Below, piece after piece: positions 3,166 to 35,504 of a stretch of DNA of 41,272 bases. Source of the stretch: an archaeon. Lineage in GTDB: Archaea; Nanobdellota; Nanobdellia; Pacearchaeales; GW2011-AR1. The position numbers and the translations under genes were made by a program. The stretch lies in the NCBI GenBank assembly GCA_030699005.1, contig JAUYLQ010000018.1, forward strand, positions 1 to 41,272. The letters run 5' to 3'. Every line of letters starts with the position of its first letter. Position 1 is the stretch's first letter. Below the pieces are notes generated by a model. It was not told where the DNA came from. It did not search any database and worked only from the letters and a program-made list of their open reading frames with translations.

Positions 3166-3277
3166 GTGGATTTGCTGAAGGCTGTTAATATTCTTTGGCT
3201 TACCCGCAAAATAAAAACTGGCGTGGATGTGCCGGATGTCACCAATATTCTTTGGTTCGTCCAGCACTCTCGATAGT
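3166..3277 (+). repeat. Two tandem 55-57 nt units, each carrying a copy of the 5' end of tRNA-Leu(CAA) followed by a CCAA-N6-TTGG hairpin/palindrome
   Basis: The degenerate copy GTGGATTTGCTGAAGG is at 3166. The exact copy GTGGATGTGCCGGA is at 3223-3236. The real tRNA starts at 3278. The hairpins are GTTAA-TATTCT-TTGGC (3184-3199) and ACCAA-TATTCT-TTGGT (3241-3256). Confidence 0.85.
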
Positions 3278-3360
3278 GTGGATGTGCCGGAGTGGTCAAA
3301 CGGGAGGGACTCAAGATCCCTTAGCTTATGCTTACCTAGGTTCGAATCCTAGCATCCACA
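3278..3360 (+). tRNA. tRNA-Leu(CAA), class II with a long variable arm
   Basis: Hand-folded cloverleaf: acceptor GTGGATG/CATCCAC, anticodon stem AGGGA/TCCCT, loop CTCAAGA, variable arm TAGCTTATGCTTAC, T arm CTAGG-TTCGAAT-CCTAG, discriminator A. Confidence 0.9.
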
Positions 3361-3454
3361 TAGAATTTTGATTTGAACCATGTCTTGGTCAATTGAATCC
3401 CGAAAATCTTTTGGCATTATCCTTACAAATTTCAAGATGGCAGTAGTTTGAGCC

Positions 3455-3475
3455 AGCATCCACATAGAATTTTGA
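3455..3475 (+). repeat. Direct repeat of the 3' end of tRNA-Leu(CAA) plus trailer
   Basis: AGCATCCACATAGAATTTTGA occurs at 3351-3371 and again at 3455-3475. The preceding AGTTTGAGCC resembles a decayed T arm (GGTTCGAATCC). Confidence 0.85.
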
Positions 3476-3665: not shown

Positions 3666-4133
3666 ATGGAAAATGAGGTCAAAGATGCAATAAAGAAGGG
3701 TTTTTCAGAGTTGGGACTGGGGAAAAACCATGAAATACCCCTCCTTTCAGAAGATTCCTTCGATGAAATTGGAAAATCAAAAGTTGATGCCTTGAAAAAT
3801 TCAATCGAGGAAATTCATGAGATGATAAGGGGAAGAGAAAGACTAAGCAGAAAAATTCACGATGAAGGTGAAACTCTGAAGTCTGAAATAAAAGGATATT
3901 TGTCTGAAAATGAAAAAATGCAGATTGCGTCTTCAGACCCGACAAGAGAAAAAAATGATTTGCGGCACAAAAAAATAGAGATTTCTGAACTTCAGATGAA
4001 TGAAAAAATAGGGTGCTGGAAAGATGTTGCTCTTTTAAAAAAAGAGCTTAGAGAGTACGAAAGGGAACTTCTTGAAAAGGAAGAACGTCTAAAAATTTTC
4101 AATAAAATTTTGAAGGAGGAAAAATTGAATTAA
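3666..4133 (+). CDS. Hypothetical coiled-coil protein, E/K-rich
   Basis: 155 aa ORF with heptad-like charged sequence. TTTATAA at 3637-3643 lies about 26 nt upstream of the ATG, which suggests a leaderless transcript. It is the first gene of the tightly spaced cassette. Confidence 0.6.
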   Translation: MENEVKDAIKKGFSELGLGKNHEIPLLSEDSFDEIGKSKVDALKNSIEEIHEMIRGRERLSRKIHDEGETLKSEIKGYLSENEKMQIASSDPTREKNDLRHKKIEISELQMNEKIGCWKDVALLKKELREYERELLEKEERLKIFNKILKEEKLN

Positions 4134-4134
4134 A

Positions 4135-4962
4135 ATGTCAAACTTAACTAATTCAGAATTAATGAGGAGATTAGATTGCGGAAACTCAGTAACATCAAAT
4201 GAAGCGGCAGATGAATTAATTGACCGTTACCTTGTTAATAAGTATAAACCATCCCTTGAAAAAGTGTCTGAAAAGGTAGAACCTACAAAGAGAGGGTTGC
4301 CGGAATCCAATTCAAATGTAAAAGTGGGGGTTTTGGAAAATTTAATTTTTGTAACAAATAAAGAACTCTACACAGAAATCGTCGGGTATATGGATAAAAC
4401 TTTTCCTGAATCAAAAAGATATCTTTCGGGGATGCTGGCTTTTGACGATGGAGTAATGAAAGGTTCAAATCCCTATGTTGTCGTAGGAACAGACATGTTT
4501 TTAAGAAAAGTAAATTCAGGGTATAGGGTCGCAACCCAGGCAGACTTAGAAAAGAATTTAGATATGTTTTCAGGGTTTTACGTTGATTCTGGCTTAGCAA
4601 TAAGAGACTCCAGCGTATTAAAAGGACTGAAAATAAGTAATGATAACCTCCCCGTATTTATTAATTTAAGAGGTTTGGAAATAAATAATAATTTCGGGTT
4701 TACGCTCTCTAAAGAATCTTTGATTAAGAGGGCAAAATGTTTAAACTGGACTAATGGAACTCACTTTTCAAAAATAAATGATTATGGGCTTCCTAAAGAA
4801 GAAGATAAATCTTCTAAAAGACAAATTCGGACTGGAAACTCTGCTTTGTCTAGGGTTTACCTCTACGGGGGTGGTTACCTGGATGTCGGGGACGGCGATC
4901 TCGGGGACTCTAGTGACTATGGTCGGGTGGTTCTTGCAAAAGTAAATGGGGGGAAATATTAA
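4135..4962 (+). CDS. Hypothetical protein; distant paralog of the ORF at 35575-36294
   Basis: AAGGAGG lies upstream and the ATG is 1 nt after the previous stop. Shares the motifs 'G.l.F..G...GSNP' and 'GLP....R(T)...LSR..L..GG' with the second ORF. No family recognised. Confidence 0.6.
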   Translation: MSNLTNSELMRRLDCGNSVTSNEAADELIDRYLVNKYKPSLEKVSEKVEPTKRGLPESNSNVKVGVLENLIFVTNKELYTEIVGYMDKTFPESKRYLSGMLAFDDGVMKGSNPYVVVGTDMFLRKVNSGYRVATQADLEKNLDMFSGFYVDSGLAIRDSSVLKGLKISNDNLPVFINLRGLEINNNFGFTLSKESLIKRAKCLNWTNGTHFSKINDYGLPKEEDKSSKRQIRTGNSALSRVYLYGGGYLDVGDGDLGDSSDYGRVVLAKVNGGKY

Positions 4963-4963
4963 A

Positions 4964-6931
4964 ATGAATTCAGGAATATCTGTTGAAGAAATTGCAAGAA
5001 AGTTAAAACCAATACTCGGAAAAAAAATTGATGAGATTTATTTTAGATATATGAATAGTGAAAGCTATGAGGAAAAGGGGGAGATTACCCAGTTTTTAAC
5101 AGCACTTTACCAGAAGCATTTGAATCAACTTTTAGATAAAGATTTTTTACTTGAACCTCCAAAGGAAGAAATTCTTCAAGGGGAATATTCGCTTGCGAAA
5201 GTAAGTTATGCCGGAAAAACTCTTTTTCCATTTTACTTAAGAGAAAAAGACTGGCCAAGGCACGTATGTGTCACAGGTATGAGCGGAAGTGGAAAAACAA
5301 CTTTTGCATTAAATATTTTAAACAAATTTATAGAGAAAGATAAGCCTTTTTTAGTTTTTGACTGGAAAAAAAGTTTTAGGCCTTTAATGAAGATGGACAA
5401 TTCTGTTATGTGTTTTACGGTCGGAAACGAGGGGGTAAGTAACCTATTTAAAACAAACATAAACAGGCCTCCAAAAGGAGTTTCACCTAAAGAGTGGATT
5501 AATACTCTTTGTGATTTACTCACTGAAAGTTTTAATGTTTCATACGGAGTTCATAAGATTCTTCTTGAAACATTAGATGAGACTTTTAGGGGATGGGGAG
5601 TTTACGAAGGCTCTAACCTTTATCCAAACTGGGAGCATGTAAGAAGGATGCTTGAAGTAAAAGCAAGAGATTCCAAGGGAAGGGAAACAGGGTGGTATGA
5701 AAGTGCATTAAGGGTCGCAACCGTTCTCACTTTTGGGGACTTTGGAAAAGTTATAAACTACGACGGAAAAAAGAGCCTTTCAGTAGATGAGTTATTTAAT
5801 AAAAAAGTAGTTTTCGAGTTAAATTCATTGTCAAACATAGAGAAAAAGTTTTTTTGTGAATACATTTTAACTTATATCTACAAATTAAAAAAGGCCGGAA
5901 GTGAAAAAAATAATGGAGATTTCAATCACGCAATTTTAGTTGACGAAGCTCATAACATTTTCTTAAAGAAAAGAACGAGCTTTATGTCAGAATCAGTAAC
6001 GGACATGATTTACCGTGAAATGCGTGAATATGGAACAAGTTTGATTTGTTTGGATCAGCATATTTCAAAATTGAGTGATACAGTCGTGGGAAACAGTGCT
6101 TGTCACGTTGCATTCCAGCAACAGCTTCCAGAAGACGTTGATGAAATAAGTTCATTAATGCAGTTAAAGCAAAAAAAAGAAATTTTTACTCAACTTTCTG
6201 TAGGTTCAGCAATCGTAAAACTTTCAGAAAGGTACACATCCCCGTTTTTAGTGGAAGTTCCATTTACTGATTTAAGAAATGCAACTTTTGAAGACTCAAA
6301 AATAAGAAGCAAGATGGGAGCAGTTATCGAAGGATATGAAATTGAAAAAAATAACCCCGAGTTTAAGAAAGAGTTAATTGGAGAAAGTGAAGAGGAAGCA
6401 ATGAAAAGAGTTGATATCCGCCAAGTAAAAACAAGGAAAAAGGAATTTCAGGAAGTTAGAGAGTTCACAAAAACCCAAAAAGTTTTGTATGACTTTGTTA
6501 TTTCAAAGCAAAAAGAAAATAAAAAATTAAATGAAATTGAAAGGCTTCTTGACTCAGGGATTTCTTCAGGGTATTATACGAAAAAAGATGTGTTAATTGT
6601 AATAAATAAGACTTTAAGTGAGAAATTAAATAAAGGAAATGAAAAGAAAGAAGAAGGTTTAGAAGCTCCATTCATTCCATCCGACTTGTCCAAGGAAGAG
6701 CTTTTGTTTGTAGACTTTCTAAAAAGTTCTCCGAACCATGGCCTGTCAACAGTTGAAATTTACAAAGAACTTGGGTTATCATCAAGAAAAGGAAATGTTG
6801 TAAAAAAGAAACTCACAGAAAAAGGATTAGTAGAAATAGTTGAAGAGAGAAGTCCAAAAGGCTGGAAAAAATTACTAAAATTATCACATTCAAATTCAAA
6901 TAACTTAAACGAAATTTCAACAAACAACTAA
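4964..6931 (+). CDS. HerA/FtsK-superfamily (DUF87/AAA_10-like) P-loop ATPase with a charged linker and a C-terminal winged-helix DNA-binding region
   Basis: Walker A 'VCVTGMSGSGKTT', Walker B 'AILVDEAHNIF', and downstream 'LICLDQH'. The C-terminus 'LFVDFLKSSPNHGLSTVEIYKELGLSSRKGNVVKKKLTEKGLVEIVEE' is wHTH-like. The start at 4964 is preferred because a GGGGGG SD lies 10-16 nt upstream. An alternative ATG is at 4946. Confidence 0.75.
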   Translation: MNSGISVEEIARKLKPILGKKIDEIYFRYMNSESYEEKGEITQFLTALYQKHLNQLLDKDFLLEPPKEEILQGEYSLAKVSYAGKTLFPFYLREKDWPRHVCVTGMSGSGKTTFALNILNKFIEKDKPFLVFDWKKSFRPLMKMDNSVMCFTVGNEGVSNLFKTNINRPPKGVSPKEWINTLCDLLTESFNVSYGVHKILLETLDETFRGWGVYEGSNLYPNWEHVRRMLEVKARDSKGRETGWYESALRVATVLTFGDFGKVINYDGKKSLSVDELFNKKVVFELNSLSNIEKKFFCEYILTYIYKLKKAGSEKNNGDFNHAILVDEAHNIFLKKRTSFMSESVTDMIYREMREYGTSLICLDQHISKLSDTVVGNSACHVAFQQQLPEDVDEISSLMQLKQKKEIFTQLSVGSAIVKLSERYTSPFLVEVPFTDLRNATFEDSKIRSKMGAVIEGYEIEKNNPEFKKELIGESEEEAMKRVDIRQVKTRKKEFQEVREFTKTQKVLYDFVISKQKENKKLNEIERLLDSGISSGYYTKKDVLIVINKTLSEKLNKGNEKKEEGLEAPFIPSDLSKEELLFVDFLKSSPNHGLSTVEIYKELGLSSRKGNVVKKKLTEKGLVEIVEERSPKGWKKLLKLSHSNSNNLNEISTNN

Positions 6932-7013
6932 TAATCGACATTGACTGCATAAAAATAAGGCTTAACAAAATAACCTTAAAAATGTGTCAAAAAAGATTTT
7001 TAGAAAAATGCTT

Positions 7014-7176
7014 GAAATACCTTTAAAGTCGAAAAAGACTTTGAAGAAAAACCCTCGCGGTCGCTCAAAAGACCAAGAGAAATACCTTTGAACAAGAAGT
7101 TCAAAGAATGAAAAATCCTACTTTTAGGTATTTCCCCTTCTGAAATACCCCCGAAATACCCTGAAATTTGGTATTT
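7014..7176. repeat. Iteron/palindrome array built on the 8-mer GAAATACC
   Basis: Direct copies at 7014, 7079, 7142 and 7153. Inverted copies GGTATTTC at 7127-7134 and GGTATTT at 7170-7176. Also inverted repeats AAAGTC/GACTTT (7025-7042) and CTTTGAAC/GTTCAAAG (7086-7106). Confidence 0.85.
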
Positions 7177-7230
7177 AACGACGTTCTTTAGTAATTATTT
7201 TCTTTATTAATTAAATAAAAAGGTTTGCAA

Positions 7231-7932
7231 ATGAAACAAATTCTCAGTTTTATTAAAAATCAATGGGTCGAAATTCTTTTCTGGCTTCAAATAATCATGT
7301 CCTGGATTTACACTATCCCCTTAGTCATTCAAATCATCTCAGGAAAAACTGGTGGCCTAAACCTTGCAACATATTCTATTTACCTGATTTACCTTGGGTT
7401 AAGTCTCTCTTTAGCTTTTTCTTCCTTCTTCTCGCTTAAGAAAGAAATAGGAAACTTGCCAAATTTTCAACAGCAAAAAGCGTTAAAGGCAAGAAAGCAG
7501 ACAATAATCATCTTTTCACAATGGGCCTTTTTAGTAAGCCTTGTCTTATTATTTGGATTAAGAAATATAGTCTGGAAAGAGAGAGATACCGTCATCTGCT
7601 TGATTATCTTAGTTTTATCGCTTTTAACGCTAATTAAATATAAAGGATTGAAAGACCCATATTCAAAAGGGTTTCTTAATGTTTGGTGCAAATCCGTTCC
7701 TCAATTGTGGCTTGGCTATACAATTTTTGCAGACGCTAGTTCAGAGGGCCTTCCATTTTTGACCTTATTTTTTGGATATCTTACTGCTCTTCAAAGATTA
7801 ATTCAAGTCTGGATTGCAGGAAGAAGGGGGATTTGGGATAAGTCAACAAAGGGGCTAATGATGGGAGAAGGATCGAATGTTCTTTCTTGGAGTATTGTAG
7901 TCGTTCTTTGGGTAGTTTTCAGGCTAAATTAA
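7231..7932 (+). CDS. Seven-TM membrane protein, possibly PQ-loop repeat family (3+1+3 architecture)
   Basis: Two PQ-loop-like segments sit at the expected TM1 and TM5 positions: 'IPLVIQIISGKTGGLNLATY' and 'SVPQLWLGYTIFADASSEGLPFLTL'. The ATG at 7231 follows AAAAAGG. The track start at 7225 is a TTG. Confidence 0.45.
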   Translation: MKQILSFIKNQWVEILFWLQIIMSWIYTIPLVIQIISGKTGGLNLATYSIYLIYLGLSLSLAFSSFFSLKKEIGNLPNFQQQKALKARKQTIIIFSQWAFLVSLVLLFGLRNIVWKERDTVICLIILVLSLLTLIKYKGLKDPYSKGFLNVWCKSVPQLWLGYTIFADASSEGLPFLTLFFGYLTALQRLIQVWIAGRRGIWDKSTKGLMMGEGSNVLSWSIVVVLWVVFRLN

Positions 7933-7963
7933 AATAATTAATAAATAAAAAGGAGTGTGTGAG

Positions 7964-8164
7964 ATGATGTTTCAAGGGCCATCAATTCCAATCGCAATAT
8001 TCACATCTAGTTTATCTCTTATTGTTTATCTTTGTTCTACTCTAGCTTTTTCCCTGTTTTATGAAGGAACTTCCGATATTCCCAGGATAATTACAGCAAT
8101 TTCAATTGTTCCAAGTTTCTATTTTTCAATAAAAATAGTTGAAAAATTACAAAAAATTAACTAA
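7964..8164 (+). CDS. Small two-TM membrane protein
   Basis: 66 aa hydrophobic ORF with an AAAGGAG SD about 9 nt upstream of the ATG at 7964. The track start at 7955 is a GTG. Confidence 0.5.
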   Translation: MMFQGPSIPIAIFTSSLSLIVYLCSTLAFSLFYEGTSDIPRIITAISIVPSFYFSIKIVEKLQKIN

Positions 8165-8201
8165 CAATTTTTAATAAATTAAAAAATTAAAGAGGTGTTA
8201 A

Positions 8202-8816
8202 ATGAATTCTTTTATTCTCCTCATTCTTTTATTAATCAATTTTTCAATATCTTGGTTCAATGCTTGGTCAGCCGGCAGATTTTGGACTGAGTCAAAAATA
8301 ATGGGTGGTTGGACACGCTTACTCATATGGTGTGCTGTTATTATGTCCGCATGTGGCTTTACTTGGGTTTATTTAACAATAATCACTGCAATTTTATTAG
8401 GTTTTGGATGGCTTTCTCCACGGGCAGGGGAAGTAATGTTTAGTCTGGGTTACTTAATTATAATTGGTCCGGTAATTGGTTCGGGATTTGGGATTTGGAT
8501 TCATTCATTAGTTCAGGCATATAAAACAAAAAGGTTTGGGGATGTTGCTGTTGCAGGGTGGAATACTTTTGCACAAGTCCATAATATTTACAATGCAGCA
8601 AAGGAGGTTCCTAGTGCATGGAAGAGTGTTGTTGATGGTCTGAAGGGGGATTCCGATGATACTAAAGGAGTCGCAATTTTACTAATAGTCATTTTGGCTG
8701 TTGCAGGAGGAGCATTAACGACTGCAGGAATTGCAAGAAGAGCAGATCGCACACATGTTATAAATTTTTCACGAAGCATGAAAAACCTGAATAAAAAATC
8801 TCGCGATTCTTATTAA
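8202..8816 (+). CDS. Polytopic membrane protein (about 5 TM), no recognised family
   Basis: 204 aa with an AGAGGTG SD upstream. Hydrophobic segments are rich in W and G. Confidence 0.6.
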   Translation: MNSFILLILLLINFSISWFNAWSAGRFWTESKIMGGWTRLLIWCAVIMSACGFTWVYLTIITAILLGFGWLSPRAGEVMFSLGYLIIIGPVIGSGFGIWIHSLVQAYKTKRFGDVAVAGWNTFAQVHNIYNAAKEVPSAWKSVVDGLKGDSDDTKGVAILLIVILAVAGGALTTAGIARRADRTHVINFSRSMKNLNKKSRDSY

Positions 8817-8841
8817 ATTAAAATTTTAAATGTCCATTTTT

Positions 8842-8931
8842 TACCCCCGCAAGCACCCCAAATTTATTATCAGTTCATTCTGGGCGGGGGTTCTAATTAA
8901 TTTTTTATTAACTAAACAAAAAGGTGAAAAA
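8842..8931 (+). promoter_or_regulatory. Copy A of a conserved hairpin / AT-rich promoter-like / SD cassette
   Basis: 8-bp GC stem ACCCCCGC (8843-8850) / GCGGGGGT (8884-8891). This is followed by CTAATTAATTTTTTATTAA and AAAAGGTGAAAAAATG. It aligns over its full 93 nt with copy B at 10092-10184. Confidence 0.7.
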
Positions 8932-9186
8932 ATGCCAACTCAAATGGTTTTTTTAGTGTTAATCTTCTTAATTCTTGTCTTGTTTACCTCTATAAGGTAT
9001 AAAAAATTTACCTTTAGAGGATTCTTTTTAAGTGTTTTAATGGGTGTGGGAGTATATTTCTTCCTATTCATTTTCTCCACCTCAACTCCACCTACTGGGT
9101 TTTTTATATGGGTAGTCTCAATTTTAACAGCATTTATTTCCGGGATTATTTATGGACTGTTTTCCGAACAGTTTCTTTATCGCTAG
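8932..9186 (+). CDS. Small three-TM membrane protein
   Basis: The internal ATG at 8932 (MPTQMVF...) is preceded by AAAAGGTGAAAAA, identical to the leader of the gene at 10182. Confidence 0.55.
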   Translation: MPTQMVFLVLIFLILVLFTSIRYKKFTFRGFFLSVLMGVGVYFFLFIFSTSTPPTGFFIWVVSILTAFISGIIYGLFSEQFLYR

Positions 9187-9230
9187 GGTGAAAAAATTTA
9201 ATCAAAATTTAAAATAATGAGAGGGCAGTC

Positions 9231-9518
9231 ATGAAAAAATCAAAAATGAATCAACAAGTTTCCGCACTTATACTTTTATTGGTCTTGGGAATGGTGATTC
9301 TTGGAGTAGCAAAGTATTATTTATGGTCTTTTGATCAAATCATGCTGAGTTTTTTAATCGAAGGCTTTCTTTGTTTTGCGCTTTCAGTTCTTTTCGCAAG
9401 ATTTTCAAAAAATAAAGAGGTCTTTTGGACGGATAGTTCTATCGGGGCATCTATTTTTTTAATAACAGTCGTTGTAGTCTGGGTTCTAGGCAGAATTTAT
9501 CTGGCTCAATTTCAATGA
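9231..9518 (+). CDS. Small three-TM membrane protein
   Basis: 95 aa. Its first 15 nt, ATGAAAAAATCAAAA (MKKSK), are identical to the start of the next gene at 9553. Confidence 0.55.
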   Translation: MKKSKMNQQVSALILLLVLGMVILGVAKYYLWSFDQIMLSFLIEGFLCFALSVLFARFSKNKEVFWTDSSIGASIFLITVVVVWVLGRIYLAQFQ

Positions 9519-9552
9519 AATAACTTAATTTTAATTAATTAAAGGCAGAATT

Positions 9553-10083
9553 ATGAAAAAATCAAAATCTTTTAGTTTAGCATTTCTCTTGCTTGGAGCA
9601 TTAATCGCGATTTCTTTATTGGCATACTCCGTGAAAAATTTGTATGAAGAAATGAATGTTGAAATGGTAGTTTTCTGGTTAGTCCTAAATCTGTTCTCTA
9701 TAGTGTTAGGATATTCTTCGCTTGAATCTCTTGTAAAAATATTGAGAGAAGATCAGGGTGGAATTAAAAAGAAGTTCATTTTTGTTCTTAAGATGGTTTA
9801 TCAGGGAAGTTTATCCCTCATCTTGTTTTTGCTCGGGGCTTTTTTATTGTTAATTACCTTTTTAGTCTGCTTTTCTGAAGTTTTTAAGGAGTACTTACCT
9901 TTTTTGGATAACCCAAAAAATGGAGAGTTCCCCGTTTTAGTTATCTCCGTACTTGTCCTATTATCCGGATCAATTTCCATAATCAAGTACTCTTTCTTGT
10001 TCGAAAGATCTTTTGAAAAAAATATTTCAAAATTTAAAAAAGGGGAGATAGAAGAATTTGAGTTTTTGAAAGCCAATAATTAA
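9553..10083 (+). CDS. Membrane protein (4-5 TM), no recognised family
   Basis: 176 aa with an MKKSK N-terminus, hydrophobic segments and a charged C-terminal tail. Confidence 0.55.
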   Translation: MKKSKSFSLAFLLLGALIAISLLAYSVKNLYEEMNVEMVVFWLVLNLFSIVLGYSSLESLVKILREDQGGIKKKFIFVLKMVYQGSLSLILFLLGAFLLLITFLVCFSEVFKEYLPFLDNPKNGEFPVLVISVLVLLSGSISIIKYSFLFERSFEKNISKFKKGEIEEFEFLKANN

Positions 10084-16193: not shown

Positions 16194-16205
16194 TTACATT
16201 AAAAA

Positions 16206-16297
16206 TGCGTCGGCCGGGATTCGAACCCGGGTCAACTGGTCACTTCGCAATTTAATTGCCTGGAAGCCAGTTATACTGACCACTGTACTACCAACGC
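16206..16297 (-). tRNA. tRNA-Gly(TCC) with a 20-nt intron at the canonical 37/38 position
   Basis: Acceptor GCGTTGG/CCGACGC, anticodon stem ACTGG/CCAGT, loop CTTCCA|A. The intron is GGCAATTAAATTGCGAAGTG (plus-strand 16241-16260). T arm CCGGG-TTCGAAT-CCCGG. Confidence 0.85.
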
Positions 16298-16311
16298 ACA
16301 TATCTAATTAC

Positions 16312-16942: not shown

Positions 16943-16946
16943 AAAT

Positions 16947-17029
16947 TGCGAGGACTAGGATTCGAACCTAGGTAAGGATAAACCACTAGAGCCTTAATCT
17001 AGCCCGTTTGACCACTCCGGCATCCCCGC
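16947..17029 (-). tRNA. tRNA-Leu (class II); the anticodon loop TTAAGGC reads AAG in the canonical register
   Basis: Same length (83 nt) and arm layout as the Leu(CAA) gene. Acceptor GCGGGGA/TCCTCGC, anticodon stem CTAGA/TCTAG. Lies 4 nt upstream of tRNA-Arg. Confidence 0.85.
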
Positions 17030-17050
17030 ATGTACGATGATGATGGATGA

Positions 17051-17087
17051 GCCAAAGAATATTGGCGACCTCCGGCATCCCCGCATG
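17051..17087 (-). repeat. Partial copy of the tRNA-Leu 5' end plus a CCAA-N6-TTGG hairpin, 55 nt upstream of the real 5' end
   Basis: CTCCGGCATCCCCGCATG occurs at 17015-17032 and 17070-17087 (plus strand). The hairpin GCCAA-N6-TTGGC is at 17051-17066. Confidence 0.85.
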
Positions 17088-17147
17088 AATTTCTTATAAA
17101 CCGGCGGTATAAAAAGTTTTATAAACTGGGCTAATCTTCAAAAATTG

Positions 17148-17259
17148 AAGACGGCCCTAGTAGGTTGGAAACACCTGTTCTCTTTCCGAACACAGAAGTT
17201 AAGCTTCCTACGTTACTGGCTTTAGTGTCCGACAAGATGCGAAACCAATAAGTCGTCTT
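17148..17259 (+). rRNA. 5S rRNA (ends approximate, +/- 5 nt)
   Basis: Hallmark 'CCGAACACAGAAGTTAAGC'. Terminal helix AAGACGGC (17148-17155) / GTCGTCTT (17252-17259). TATAAAAA lies upstream at about 17108. Confidence 0.8.
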
Positions 17260-17321
17260 TCATTTTCTTTTAAATTCCTTTGATTAACAAACTTTATATA
17301 TCAAAAAATTTTCAAGTTTGA

Positions 17322-34430: not shown

Positions 34431-35504
34431 CTACTTTTTATTTACCAAGATTTCATCCTCGGCCCATTTAATAAATCTTTTTATCCCAAAAACAAGGTTT
34501 ACTTTTGGATTATAATGCAAAATGTTTCTACTTTTTGTCAAGTCCGGACATCTTCTGCTTGGGTCAGATTTGTTTCCATAAACGCCCATTTTATCTTCTT
34601 TGTATTCAACTGACGAATTTTTATTTCCAACTAATCCCAAAACAAGATCTCCCAAATGTTTCATTTTAATTTCCTGGTCATCGTTTCCTATATTGAATAT
34701 TCTCTCGCTTTCCGAAGAAAGCAATGCTTTAATCCAACCTGACGTGGCATCAGAGATATAGCAAAAAGTTCTTGTTTGGTCTCCATCCCCATACATAGTT
34801 ATTTTTTCTCCATTTATCGCAGAAGAAACGAAATTAGGAATGACTCTCCCATCATCAAGCCTCATCCCAGGACCATACACATTAAAAGGTCTGACTATTT
34901 TTATTGGAATATTGTGGATGTCTCCATAATTCACACAAAGGGTCTCACCTATTCTTTTTGGTTCATCATAACATGATCTTGGACCATTGCACGAAACATT
35001 TCCTCTGTATTCCTCAGGTGTTGGAATAAATTTTGAATCAGGATCTCCATAAACTTCACTTGAACTAAAAAACAGAAAATTTTTCACATTTTTTTCTTTA
35101 GCAATCTCAAGAAGATTTCTTGTTCCAAGGAAACCCGCGTTAATCGTCTCTAATCTGAATTTATTGTAAAATTTTGGAGAGGCCAGACTTGCTGCATGTA
35201 TTATATAATCCACATCCCCCTCCAGAATGAATTCTTTTGAAATGTCTTGTTTTATCACTGATATGTTTTCATTTTCTTCAATTTTTCTTTCAAGACCTGT
35301 TATAAAGTTGTCAGCAACGATTACTTTGCAAGGTTTTTCAAGGGAGTTTTTATTAAGATAATCCAAGGTAGAAACAAGGTATTTCCCCAAAAATCCTGCT
35401 CCCCCCGCAATAAAAATCGTTTCCCCATTAAGCTTGTGAGAAATATCTCTGATTTCGTTAGATATTTCTTCAAGATCCTCCGAAATAATTTTGTGACTCC
35501 CCAT
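34431..35504 (-). CDS. UDP-glucuronate decarboxylase (UXS)-like SDR
   Basis: 'IFIAGGAGFLGKYL', 'SSSEVYGDP', 'GPRSCYDEPKRIGETL', 'RPFNVYGPGMRLDDGRVIPNF', 'YGDGDQTRTFCYISD'. Confidence 0.72.
   Translation of the reverse strand: MGSHKIISEDLEEISNEIRDISHKLNGETIFIAGGAGFLGKYLVSTLDYLNKNSLEKPCKVIVADNFITGLERKIEENENISVIKQDISKEFILEGDVDYIIHAASLASPKFYNKFRLETINAGFLGTRNLLEIAKEKNVKNFLFFSSSEVYGDPDSKFIPTPEEYRGNVSCNGPRSCYDEPKRIGETLCVNYGDIHNIPIKIVRPFNVYGPGMRLDDGRVIPNFVSSAINGEKITMYGDGDQTRTFCYISDATSGWIKALLSSESERIFNIGNDDQEIKMKHLGDLVLGLVGNKNSSVEYKEDKMGVYGNKSDPSRRCPDLTKSRNILHYNPKVNLVFGIKRFIKWAEDEILVNKK

Follow-up and report, generated by a model that had tools for sequence, protein, structure and literature searches.

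In FtsK and SpoIIIE, hexameric ATPases of the FtsK-HerA superfamily, an extreme C-terminal winged helix reads a short oriented word of 7-8 bp (the FtsK orienting polar sequences, KOPS, or the SpoIIIE recognition sequences, SRS) and loads or orients the motor; in FtsK the winged helix that reads KOPS is the γ domain (PMC3384302). The C-terminus of the Streptomyces translocase TraB recognises direct 8-bp repeats in clt, the cis-acting transfer locus (PMC4447253), and the Ced and Ted systems encode a VirB4/HerA-like ATPase together with small proteins of two transmembrane (TM) segments and a protein of six to seven (PMC9905601). Here we describe a conserved array of a short DNA word that lies directly 3′ of the gene for a predicted HerA/VirB4-clade ATPase with a C-terminal winged helix-turn-helix (wHTH) domain in a DPANN archaeon of the Pacearchaeales (GW2011-AR1; assembly GCA_030699005.1, contig JAUYLQ010000018.1). 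The stretch analysed, hereafter the window, comprises 41,272 nt with a G+C content of ~33%, and all coordinates refer to its + strand. Our preferred reading, held with no more than even confidence, is that the element is a phased iteron array and the cognate cis DNA site of the ATPase wHTH of this module, with a superimposed single-strand (probably RNA) structure.

At 7014, 7079, 7142 and 7153 the + strand carries the 8-mer GAAATACC, which the − strand carries at 7127, and a copy matching it in seven of eight positions, TAAATACC, lies on the − strand at 7170, exactly where a preliminary description of the locus had placed them. That description overlooked two degenerate copies in phase with the others (7046 and 7110), the middle one of three hairpins (7054-7079) and a second cluster of words at 3699-3739. 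Iteron 1 (7014-7021) starts 11 nt past an element resembling a B recognition element and TATA box (BRE/TATA), and the same first copy is present in homologous loci. Iteron 2 (7046-7053), the degenerate GAAAAACC, follows 32 nt further on and is kept in 8/9 close loci, and iteron 3 (7079-7086), another 33 nt downstream, forms an invariant block. A weak degenerate copy, GAAAAATCC (7110-7118), is in phase at 31 nt past iteron 3 and is not kept in relatives. Iteron 4 (7142-7149), invariant in nine loci, is followed after 11 nt by iteron 5 (7153-7160), and this in turn by a degenerate GAAATTTG at 7163. The inverted copies are GGTATTTC (− strand, 7127-7134), of which just TATTTC is kept in relatives, and the poorly conserved 7-mer GGTATTT (− strand, 7170-7176). 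The extended form GAAATACCTTT(A/G)AA is indeed found twice, 65 nt apart, and no open reading frame (ORF) of 40 aa or more is present in the 299 bp (6932-7230) that separate the stop codon of the ATPase gene (6931) from the next ATG (7231).

Local enrichment of the word, the first point on which the preliminary description depended, is evident within the window: seven exact copies of GAAATACC on both strands compare with 1.5 expected, and five of the seven fall inside ~150 bp. Outside the two clusters the + strand of the 41 kb shows no excess of the word family (9 observed, 7.1 expected), and the − strand holds 20 copies against 9.5 expected, an excess that tracks the coding strand. Three sense members of the family, GAAATATC, GAAATACC and GAAAAACC, also occur at 35332-35468 in the first 175 nt of a gene for an NAD-dependent epimerase (34431-35504, − strand), where ~0.04 are expected by chance. 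These copies lack helical phasing and may be either a further target site or a coincidence of codon usage.

The comparison set consisted of 80 homologous ATPase loci of 14 kb each (L001-L080) from species-representative genomes, with ATPase protein identities of 50-82%. A nine-word family was counted in 75 of these loci over the 450 nt past the ATPase stop, with 450 nt within the ATPase gene as the control. Per locus, the downstream region contains 3.47 sense and 0.44 antisense copies, a ratio of ~8:1, and the in-gene control 0.09. At least two sense copies are present in 62/75 loci and at least three in 51/75, and a lack of such an array at homologous loci, which the preliminary description had named as refuting it, is thereby contradicted. 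The exact 8-mer recurs no more than 500 nt past the ATPase stop in most loci, nearly all copies within a 14-kb locus fall there, and the word with its conserved flanks reads T-GAAATACC-Y-T. Since a sequence-only nhmmer search retrieved just 16 loci, a covariance model was built from nine close loci; it matches the + strand just past the ATPase in ~40 loci at E < 0.1 and finds nothing convincing elsewhere in the 0.92 Mb of loci. The array is real and not a product of chance: it is a deeply conserved element of the iteron type that is tied to the ATPase-wHTH gene.

The array also appears to be undescribed. Literature searches returned only primer-type matches for the 8-mer and no description for DPANN archaea in combination with HerA/DUF87 or with a structured RNA. 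The best match in Rfam 15 scores 21.9 bits against a threshold of 90 bits, and a scan at gathering thresholds gives nothing at the element. In IMG/VR, 55 contigs carry the tandem-word pattern, which is about the level of chance, and the covariance model identifies none of them as the element. Many loci have further conserved noncoding words, TCATATTCAC, CATTTCAAA and AAATCGACA, between the ATPase stop and the array (0-150 nt past the stop; 6900-6940 in the window), together with an extra hairpin whose stem covaries (for example GGAATTATTCC and AGGTTTACCT; AAGG...CCTT at 6957-6977 in the window). They may belong to a promoter, to the 5′ portion of an RNA that extends beyond the array, or to additional sites for proteins. 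Within the ATPase gene, ~500-600 nt upstream of its stop, the word family has a minor second peak (~0.2 copies per locus and 50 nt) in a stretch translated as VEK-x-DPEF; this peak is probably a by-product of conserved codons.

The distances between successive sense copies are not arbitrary but cluster at 10-11, 20-21, 31-33, 41-43, 52-55, 63-64, 74, 84-85, 95-96 and 104-106 nt. For all successive spacings (n=187) the best period is 10.6-10.7 nt (R=0.72), and for spacings of at least 36 nt (n=83) it is 10.7 nt (R=0.64; 99.9th percentile of the null, 0.37). Direct repeats at integer multiples of ~10.5 bp persist when clades are collapsed to one locus per ATPase cluster, with a period of 10.7 nt at 75% identity (41 clusters; R=0.63, 99th percentile of the null 0.34) and of 10.9 nt at 65% identity (18 clusters; R=0.51, null 0.44). 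Clades differ in using 7, 8, 9 or 10 turns, and in locus L002 an insertion of 11 nt relative to its relatives (75 versus 64 nt) amounts to one turn. In the window, the copies at 7014, 7046, 7079, 7110, 7142 and 7153 are separated by 32, 33, 31, 32 and 11 nt, and the centres of the inverted copies at 7127 and 7170 are offset by 15 and 17 nt from those of their direct partners, which puts them out of phase. Because this non-integer period equals the helical repeat of B-DNA, the words would lie on one face of duplex DNA. Helical phasing is the classic signature of cooperative protein binding.

A second peak of word density occurs in the first 100 nt of the gene for a 155-aa protein at the start of the module (3666-4133, + strand), with 1.75 sense copies per locus and at least one copy in 67/75 loci. 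In the window this site spans 3699-3739 within codons ~12-25 and consists of an inverted partner, GGTTTTTC (3699-3706), followed by GAAAAACC (3722-3729) and GAAATACC (3732-3739). The in-gene words are distributed over all three frames (72, 23 and 17 copies), and the peptides that they encode (for example KNHEIP, EKPEIT, GNTWNTS and NGIPQ) are unrelated and belong to an otherwise unconserved N-terminal segment, which argues that selection acts on the nucleotides. An inverted partner lies within 45 nt of a copy in 34/75 loci compared with 2.3 (maximum 9) in shuffled sequences, and it fits the local variant, GGTTTTTC being paired with GAAAAACC at this site just as GGTATTTC is with GAAATACC in the array. 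Its position varies: the partner lies either upstream, with a loop of 6, 7 or 15 nt, or downstream, with a 10-nt loop that contains the second word. As the geometry varies while complementarity is kept, a hairpin rather than a fixed dimer site is indicated.

The inverted repeats that follow the 8-mers, already recorded in the preliminary description (7021-7030/7037-7046 with a 6-nt loop and 7086-7093/7099-7106 with a 5-nt loop), are covarying hairpins and add a second, single-strand layer to the array. Each of the first three words precedes a hairpin of about 9-10 bp: H1 (7021-7046, + strand) has a 10-bp stem and the loop GAAAAA, H2 (7054-7079) pairs 7054-7056 with 7077-7079 and 7059-7062 with 7071-7074 around an internal mismatch, and H3 (7086-7106) has an 8-bp stem and the loop AAGAA. 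All three covary, and their loops begin with G and end in A or AA. Covariation was scored against shuffles and slid controls in two alignments. In an independent MAFFT alignment of nine loci, 13 pairs of H1-H3 are changed on both sides, and the score of 0.298 exceeds that of shuffles (0.202; 0/500 reach it) and of slid controls (at most 0.124). In a model-fitted alignment of 26 sequences, which is biased towards structure, 37/42 pairs show double changes with a score of 0.356 (shuffles 0.132, slid controls at most 0.083); for H1, both-side changes are found in all 10 pairs and 89% of cells are paired. The + strand of the window folds with a z-score of −6.2 compared with −3.0 for the − strand, and the words occupy the unpaired linkers of the predicted fold.

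Two further inverted repeats had been described as palindromic sites, H4 (7127-7149) and H5 (7153-7176). As sequence they are present (7127-7134/7142-7149 with a 7-nt spacer and 7154-7160/7170-7176 with a 9-nt spacer), iteron 4 doubling as the 3′ arm of H4 and iteron 5 as the 5′ arm of H5, with the inverted copies at 7127 and 7170 as the opposite arms. As protein sites, however, they are not supported: the arms are poorly conserved, show no compensatory change and are out of phase. The outer pairs break in relatives, where TATTTC facing GAAATA alone is kept. The 'palindromes' are better seen as hairpin arms.

The array is bracketed by elements resembling those of a small transcription unit. 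Upstream lies the BRE/TATA-like AAAAAAG-ATTTTTAG (6989-7003, + strand), which matches in form the promoters that precede the 5S rRNA, tRNA-Gly, 155-aa protein and SecF genes of the window; if the proximal TATA is used, a start at ~7022-7028 is predicted. Downstream, at 7184-7211 (+ strand), T-rich runs that could serve as an archaeal terminator are followed by C-TTTATTAA, a canonical putative promoter of a membrane-protein gene. Judged by these signals the region may be transcribed. One locus of the comparison set, L041, separates the element from its usual neighbour. Here the segment from the S9 gene to the ATPase gene is inverted, the ATPase gene is directly followed by a convergent gene, and the element is found at a distance of 4.5 kb, on the opposite strand and downstream of the ribosomal genes. 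It keeps the three hairpins with wholly different stems (for example CUUUUCCUC-GAUAAA-GAAGAAAAG) and the same type of loop, and it retains the upstream words CATTTCA and AAGATT as well as AAGATTTT, which is also kept in relatives. This conservation after the inversion excludes that the element is the 3′ untranslated region (UTR) of the ATPase mRNA and argues that it is autonomous of the ATPase transcript.

The ATPase gene next to the array (4946-6931, + strand) encodes a protein of 661 aa with more than 760 homologues. Among 119 other homologues listed, identities range from 57 to 82%, and the matches listed are labelled Pacearchaeota, Woesearchaeota, Nanoarchaeota or Diapherotrites, many on contigs of 100-450 kb. 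Its predicted structure (mean predicted local distance difference test score, pLDDT, 78) has HerA, VirB4 and DndH-C as top Foldseek matches (E ~1e-12); Pfam assigns DUF87/HerA, PADLOC its HerA models, and no match to the FtsK_SpoIIIE family of Pfam is obtained. Sequence and model alike predict membership of the FtsK-HerA superfamily, and the modelled fold places the ATPase in the HerA/VirB4 clade, not in that of FtsK. A wHTH is predicted at residues 583-646 (pLDDT 82-88; encoded at ~6692-6883), with weak, sub-threshold similarity exclusively to duplex-DNA-binding domains of the MarR, TrmB, F-93 and LexA types. The 155-aa protein, present in 74/80 loci, is a predicted soluble coiled-coil partner of no known family, for which Pfam, PDB and PADLOC yielded no homologue above noise. 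Neither this protein nor the ATPase, whose maximum 19-aa hydropathy is 0.91, has a predicted TM segment. Two of the contigs that carry this archaeal ATPase module (L016 and L042) are deposited as metagenome-assembled genomes of a 'bacterium' and a 'Desulfobulbaceae bacterium', labels that probably reflect binning errors.

How closely does this locus follow the described systems? With FtsK and KOPS it shares the word length, the strong orientation of the copies and the domain order, ATPase followed by wHTH. KOPS, however, are scattered over the whole chromosome with a skew, whereas the words of the present locus are gathered in two local clusters and, apart from the bias of the coding strand, are not in excess over the rest of the 41 kb; they are, moreover, helically phased and interleaved with hairpins, and the HerA/VirB4-like ATPase has no membrane anchor. 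As the window shows no skewed distribution and the ATPase is not of the FtsK clade, we do not count the locus among the FtsK-KOPS family. The resemblance to TraB and clt lies in the clustering of direct 8-bp repeats at a single cis locus beside the gene of the translocase on the same replicon. The clt locus is situated at or just past the 3′ end of traB, and the overall layout, a motor gene and then its own array of repeats, is therefore alike. In contrast to the soluble HerA/VirB4-clade ATPase, a core chromosomal protein encoded beside ribosomal protein genes, TraB is FtsK-like, membrane-anchored and found on conjugative plasmids and actinomycete integrative and conjugative elements (AICEs). 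As the present ATPase is neither membrane-anchored nor carried by a conjugative element, the locus is not assigned to the TraB-clt family either. By analogy we claim resemblance to both systems in working logic and not membership.

Phased iteron centromeres and origins, such as ParR-parC of plasmid R1 and the iterons of plasmid Rep proteins, place direct repeats at whole turns of ~11 bp or multiples thereof. As there, many copies of a protein could coat one DNA face and build a higher-order complex beside the gene of the cognate system. The differences are that no partner of the ParA/ParM or Rep type is found here, that the repeats measure only 8-11 nt and are separated by covarying hairpins, and that a second site lies in coding sequence. 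With Ced and Ted the locus has in common a HerA/VirB4-like ATPase followed by small proteins, here of 1-6 TM segments, whose sequences show no detectable similarity to Ced/Ted components. The DPANN ATPase differs in having a wHTH and a coiled-coil partner, and the available excerpt on Ced and Ted describes no cis-acting site for them.

The preliminary description had proposed, besides an origin, an operator array or a partition or packaging site, with the adjacent wHTH as candidate reader. Conservation of the array with the ATPase gene and the 10.6-nt phasing make iterons read by the wHTH plausible, and an operator, partition or loading site is still the best candidate; the sole co-variation signal is confounded with clade. 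In 58 loci with a recognition helix of the form S-x-R-K-G-N, position 2 of the word is A in 273 copies and G in 47, and in 19 loci with S-A-R-K-G-T it is A in 32 and G in 58, so that RKGN to RKGT coincides with A to G. The T-type loci, however, form one clade, and their N-type sister group already prefers G. The strong raw association accordingly reduces to a single clade and is discarded as proof of the reader. We nevertheless rank reading on duplex DNA first, because the phasing is hard to explain otherwise, because the wHTH is the only domain of a DNA-binding type conserved in the neighbourhood, and because FtsK-γ with KOPS and TraB with clt provide precedents. We infer reading of the words by the wHTH, transcription of the region and, as biological output, autoregulation and/or loading of a DNA translocase.

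In this model the words T-GAAATACC-Y would be read on duplex DNA. Spaced by whole helical turns (one in the tandem tail, three across each hairpin module and 4-10 in other clades), they would allow several wHTHs of an oligomeric ATPase to align on one DNA face and to form a single nucleoprotein complex directly 3′ of the operon. The second pair of words, at +56 to +73 of the first gene and just past its promoter, would let occupancy feed back on the operon, the two sites bracketing it. As the first word of the array lies between the BRE/TATA-like element and the predicted start, binding might also gate transcription across the array towards the membrane-protein genes. Three covarying hairpins lie between the words, partner arms could sequester words, and the single-strand structure would most simply act in a small + strand transcript of ~170-200 nt, or in unwound DNA.

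Several points weigh against this model. The two layers conflict: phasing argues for reading of the duplex, and covariation, strand bias and partners of variable geometry argue for single-strand folding. A model of duplex DNA alone leaves the hairpins, the sense bias and the variable hairpin of the 5′ site unexplained, and these are better explained by an RNA. The single-stranded species could, moreover, be RNA or DNA. In an unbiased scan G:T and A:C mismatches (63 versus 62) show no strand asymmetry; an impression of G-U excess gained from H1 only did not generalise, and such an asymmetry is ruled out as proof of RNA. Part of the periodicity could originate from two commensurate building blocks, the 32-nt module and the 10-11-nt tandem. 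The co-variation of wHTH and word corresponds to at most one or two events at the level of clades, another protein could be the reader of the words, and we know of no sequence-specific loading sites for HerA and VirB4 ATPases.

The main rival assigns the element to RNA, an explanation that we regard as possible, if tentative. A putative small structured RNA of ~170-260 nt, transcribed from the BRE/TATA-like element, would display 5-7 single-stranded GAAAUACC words between hairpins and serve as multivalent decoy or platform for an RNA-binding factor that also binds these words and the hairpin in the 5′ coding region of the operon mRNA. RNAs of the CsrB/RsmZ type titrate their partner in such a manner: they expose many unpaired copies of a short word between their hairpins, and a target mRNA has that word in its 5′ region. 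The pattern seen here is similar, with a repeated word in unpaired linkers and again in the 5′ region of the 155-aa gene, and it competes with the phasing on DNA. Further support comes from the strong covariation of H1-H3, from fold z-scores that favour the + strand in 22/26 loci (mean −3.5 versus −1.6), from the ~8:1 excess of sense copies, and from the location of the 5′ site within an mRNA, where the variant-matched inverted partner stands at 6, 7, 10 or 15 nt. The element also survives separation from the ATPase with different stem sequences in L041, and it is flanked by the promoter-like element and T-rich runs. On the other hand, a non-integer period of 10.6 nt maintained over 4-10 'turns' of differing intervening sequence is unexpected on a folded RNA, and in contrast to CsrB/RsmZ the words are phased with the DNA helical repeat. 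No Rfam family matches, the mismatches show no excess of G-U, and we know of no CsrA-like protein here. ATPases of the HerA/VirB4 type and winged helices of the MarR/TrmB type bind DNA, and transcription from the proximal TATA would drop the first word and truncate H1. C/D-box and H/ACA small RNAs, RNase P RNA and signal recognition particle (SRP) RNA were considered and rejected, the boxes and helices not being conserved and the only weak Rfam match being to a C/D family (E=0.4).

Returning to reading of the words on DNA, a more far-reaching form of it is that the module represents a novel DNA-handling machine of DPANN archaea (Pacearchaeota/Woesearchaeota), in which a soluble motor of the HerA/VirB4 clade with a wHTH, its coiled-coil partner and fast-evolving membrane proteins would be loaded at the phased array. 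Such a machine would be a counterpart of FtsK-KOPS or TraB-clt for segregation or for DNA transfer between symbiont and host, its hairpins acting on the unwound or transcribed strand. We put this forward as speculation and consider it doubtful.

Alternatively, a conventional transcription factor distinct from the ATPase might use the words as an operator or upstream-activating array, which would control both the downstream membrane-protein genes and the 155-aa/ATPase operon. The small multi-TM membrane-protein gene cluster of the window (7231-10083, + strand) is of a type that is conserved across loci in kind and not in sequence: in almost every locus co-oriented genes for small proteins of 1-6 TM segments begin 25-250 nt past the element, and those downstream of the array in the window have a homologue in no other locus of the 80. 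The start of the membrane gene follows the tandem words at 55-90 nt, its TATA coming just after them, and helical phasing is typical of cooperative binding by transcription factors. Word-for-word conservation across lineages with protein identities of 50-60% is, however, rare for operators; linkage of the element to the ATPase operon persists through a complete turnover of the downstream genes, and besides the wHTH-bearing ATPase no conserved regulator gene is found in the neighbourhood. Taken as a whole, this explanation seems to us unlikely.

A replication origin, also suggested in the preliminary description, fares worse, and whether meant as a chromosomal origin or as a hairpin-based origin of single-strand initiation or transfer we judge it very improbable. 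The locus is apparently single-copy, with no second convincing match in the 41-kb window or the 14-kb loci, it adjoins a gene for an NTPase with a wHTH, and iterons and hairpins are combined with 300-450 bp of A-rich noncoding sequence that includes the conserved words past the ATPase stop. Yet in contrast to an archaeal oriC, with its origin recognition boxes (ORB) and Orc1/Cdc6, the copies stand ~8:1 in one orientation and not as inverted boxes flanking an AT-rich unwinding region, no orc1/cdc6 is found among the genes of the window, and the GC skew shows no inflection at 7 kb. A second word cluster in coding sequence would be unexpected at an origin, no relaxase or Rep gene is present, and the element is in none of the 55 viral contigs with the tandem word.

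Barely credible, finally, is that the ATPase mRNA has its 3′ UTR or terminator in this region, or that a mobile element at the nearby tRNA-Leu gene left a scar here. In favour are the position of the array directly 3′ of the ATPase gene, a tRNA-Leu gene with duplicated ends 3.6 kb upstream and the variable downstream genes. Yet the inversion in L041 leaves the element conserved 4.5 kb away past ribosomal genes, ATPase and partner are core chromosomal genes beside L18e-L13-S9 in dozens of lineages, and the region has no direct repeat of the tRNA end at its borders. With no bounding repeat and a conserved chromosomal synteny, a mobile element at tRNA-Leu was discarded.

Ribosomal genes flank the + strand block of the module, S13-S4-S11-RpoD on one side and L18e-L13-S9 on the other, the latter being divergently upstream of the module in ~38 loci. 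This conserved synteny indicates that the module is core chromosomal and not a mobile element. A gene for a Xer-type tyrosine recombinase (619-1449) is syntenic with the module, 3.5-6 kb upstream, in 34 of 80 loci, as is, in ~35 loci, a gene for a 145-aa protein (1436-1873) in which a partial 'Recombinase' domain is combined with a Mor-like HTH domain. Between the 155-aa and ATPase genes lies an ORF of 275 aa (4135-4962) that overlaps the ATPase start by 17 nt and for which no homologue was found in the 80 related loci and no match in Pfam. Since several other loci carry unrelated insertions at the same junction, it appears to be a local insertion hotspot.

Both tRNA-Leu genes of the window (3277-3361, + strand; 16946-17030, − strand) are preceded by a conserved block of ~35 nt, GGATGYGCCGGAKGTCRCCAATATTCTTTGG. 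This block (regions 3166-3291 and 16946-17085) repeats the 5′ end of the tRNA itself, GTGGATGTGCCGGA, which is present at 3223 and 3278 and, in weaker form, at 3166. It may be a promoter or leader of an unusual kind, or what is left of tRNA halves that were split or duplicated. Together with 10 nt of flank, the 3′ end of tRNA-Leu(CAA), AGCATCCACATAGAATTTTGA (3351-3371), is repeated exactly 104 nt downstream (3455-3475), with no third copy in the window, and has the appearance of an att-type scar left by an earlier integration or excision. A tRNA-Gly(TCC) gene (16205-16298) is 94 nt long and so probably contains an intron, and a solitary 5S rRNA gene (17147-17261) has no 16S or 23S gene nearby in the window. 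The rest of the window encodes tRNAs, SecDF, AglB and glycosyltransferases in addition to this 5S rRNA.

DPANN archaea, which have been cultivated barely or not at all, are host-dependent and have minimal genomes, and to our knowledge little has been established on how they segregate, exchange and regulate their DNA. The locus described here provides a highly conserved, uncharacterised ATPase of these organisms with a candidate cis partner, a word of 8-11 nt with defined phasing and two defined sites, and in-vitro biochemistry on a fragment of 180 bp is possible without culturing the organism. It is also a case of overlapping codes, in which a DNA word is kept inside coding sequence in all three frames and helical phasing coexists with covarying hairpins. 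If the array proves to be a loading site, the principle of a motor with a guide word, represented in bacteria by FtsK, SpoIIIE and TraB, would come to include archaea and the HerA/VirB4 clade.

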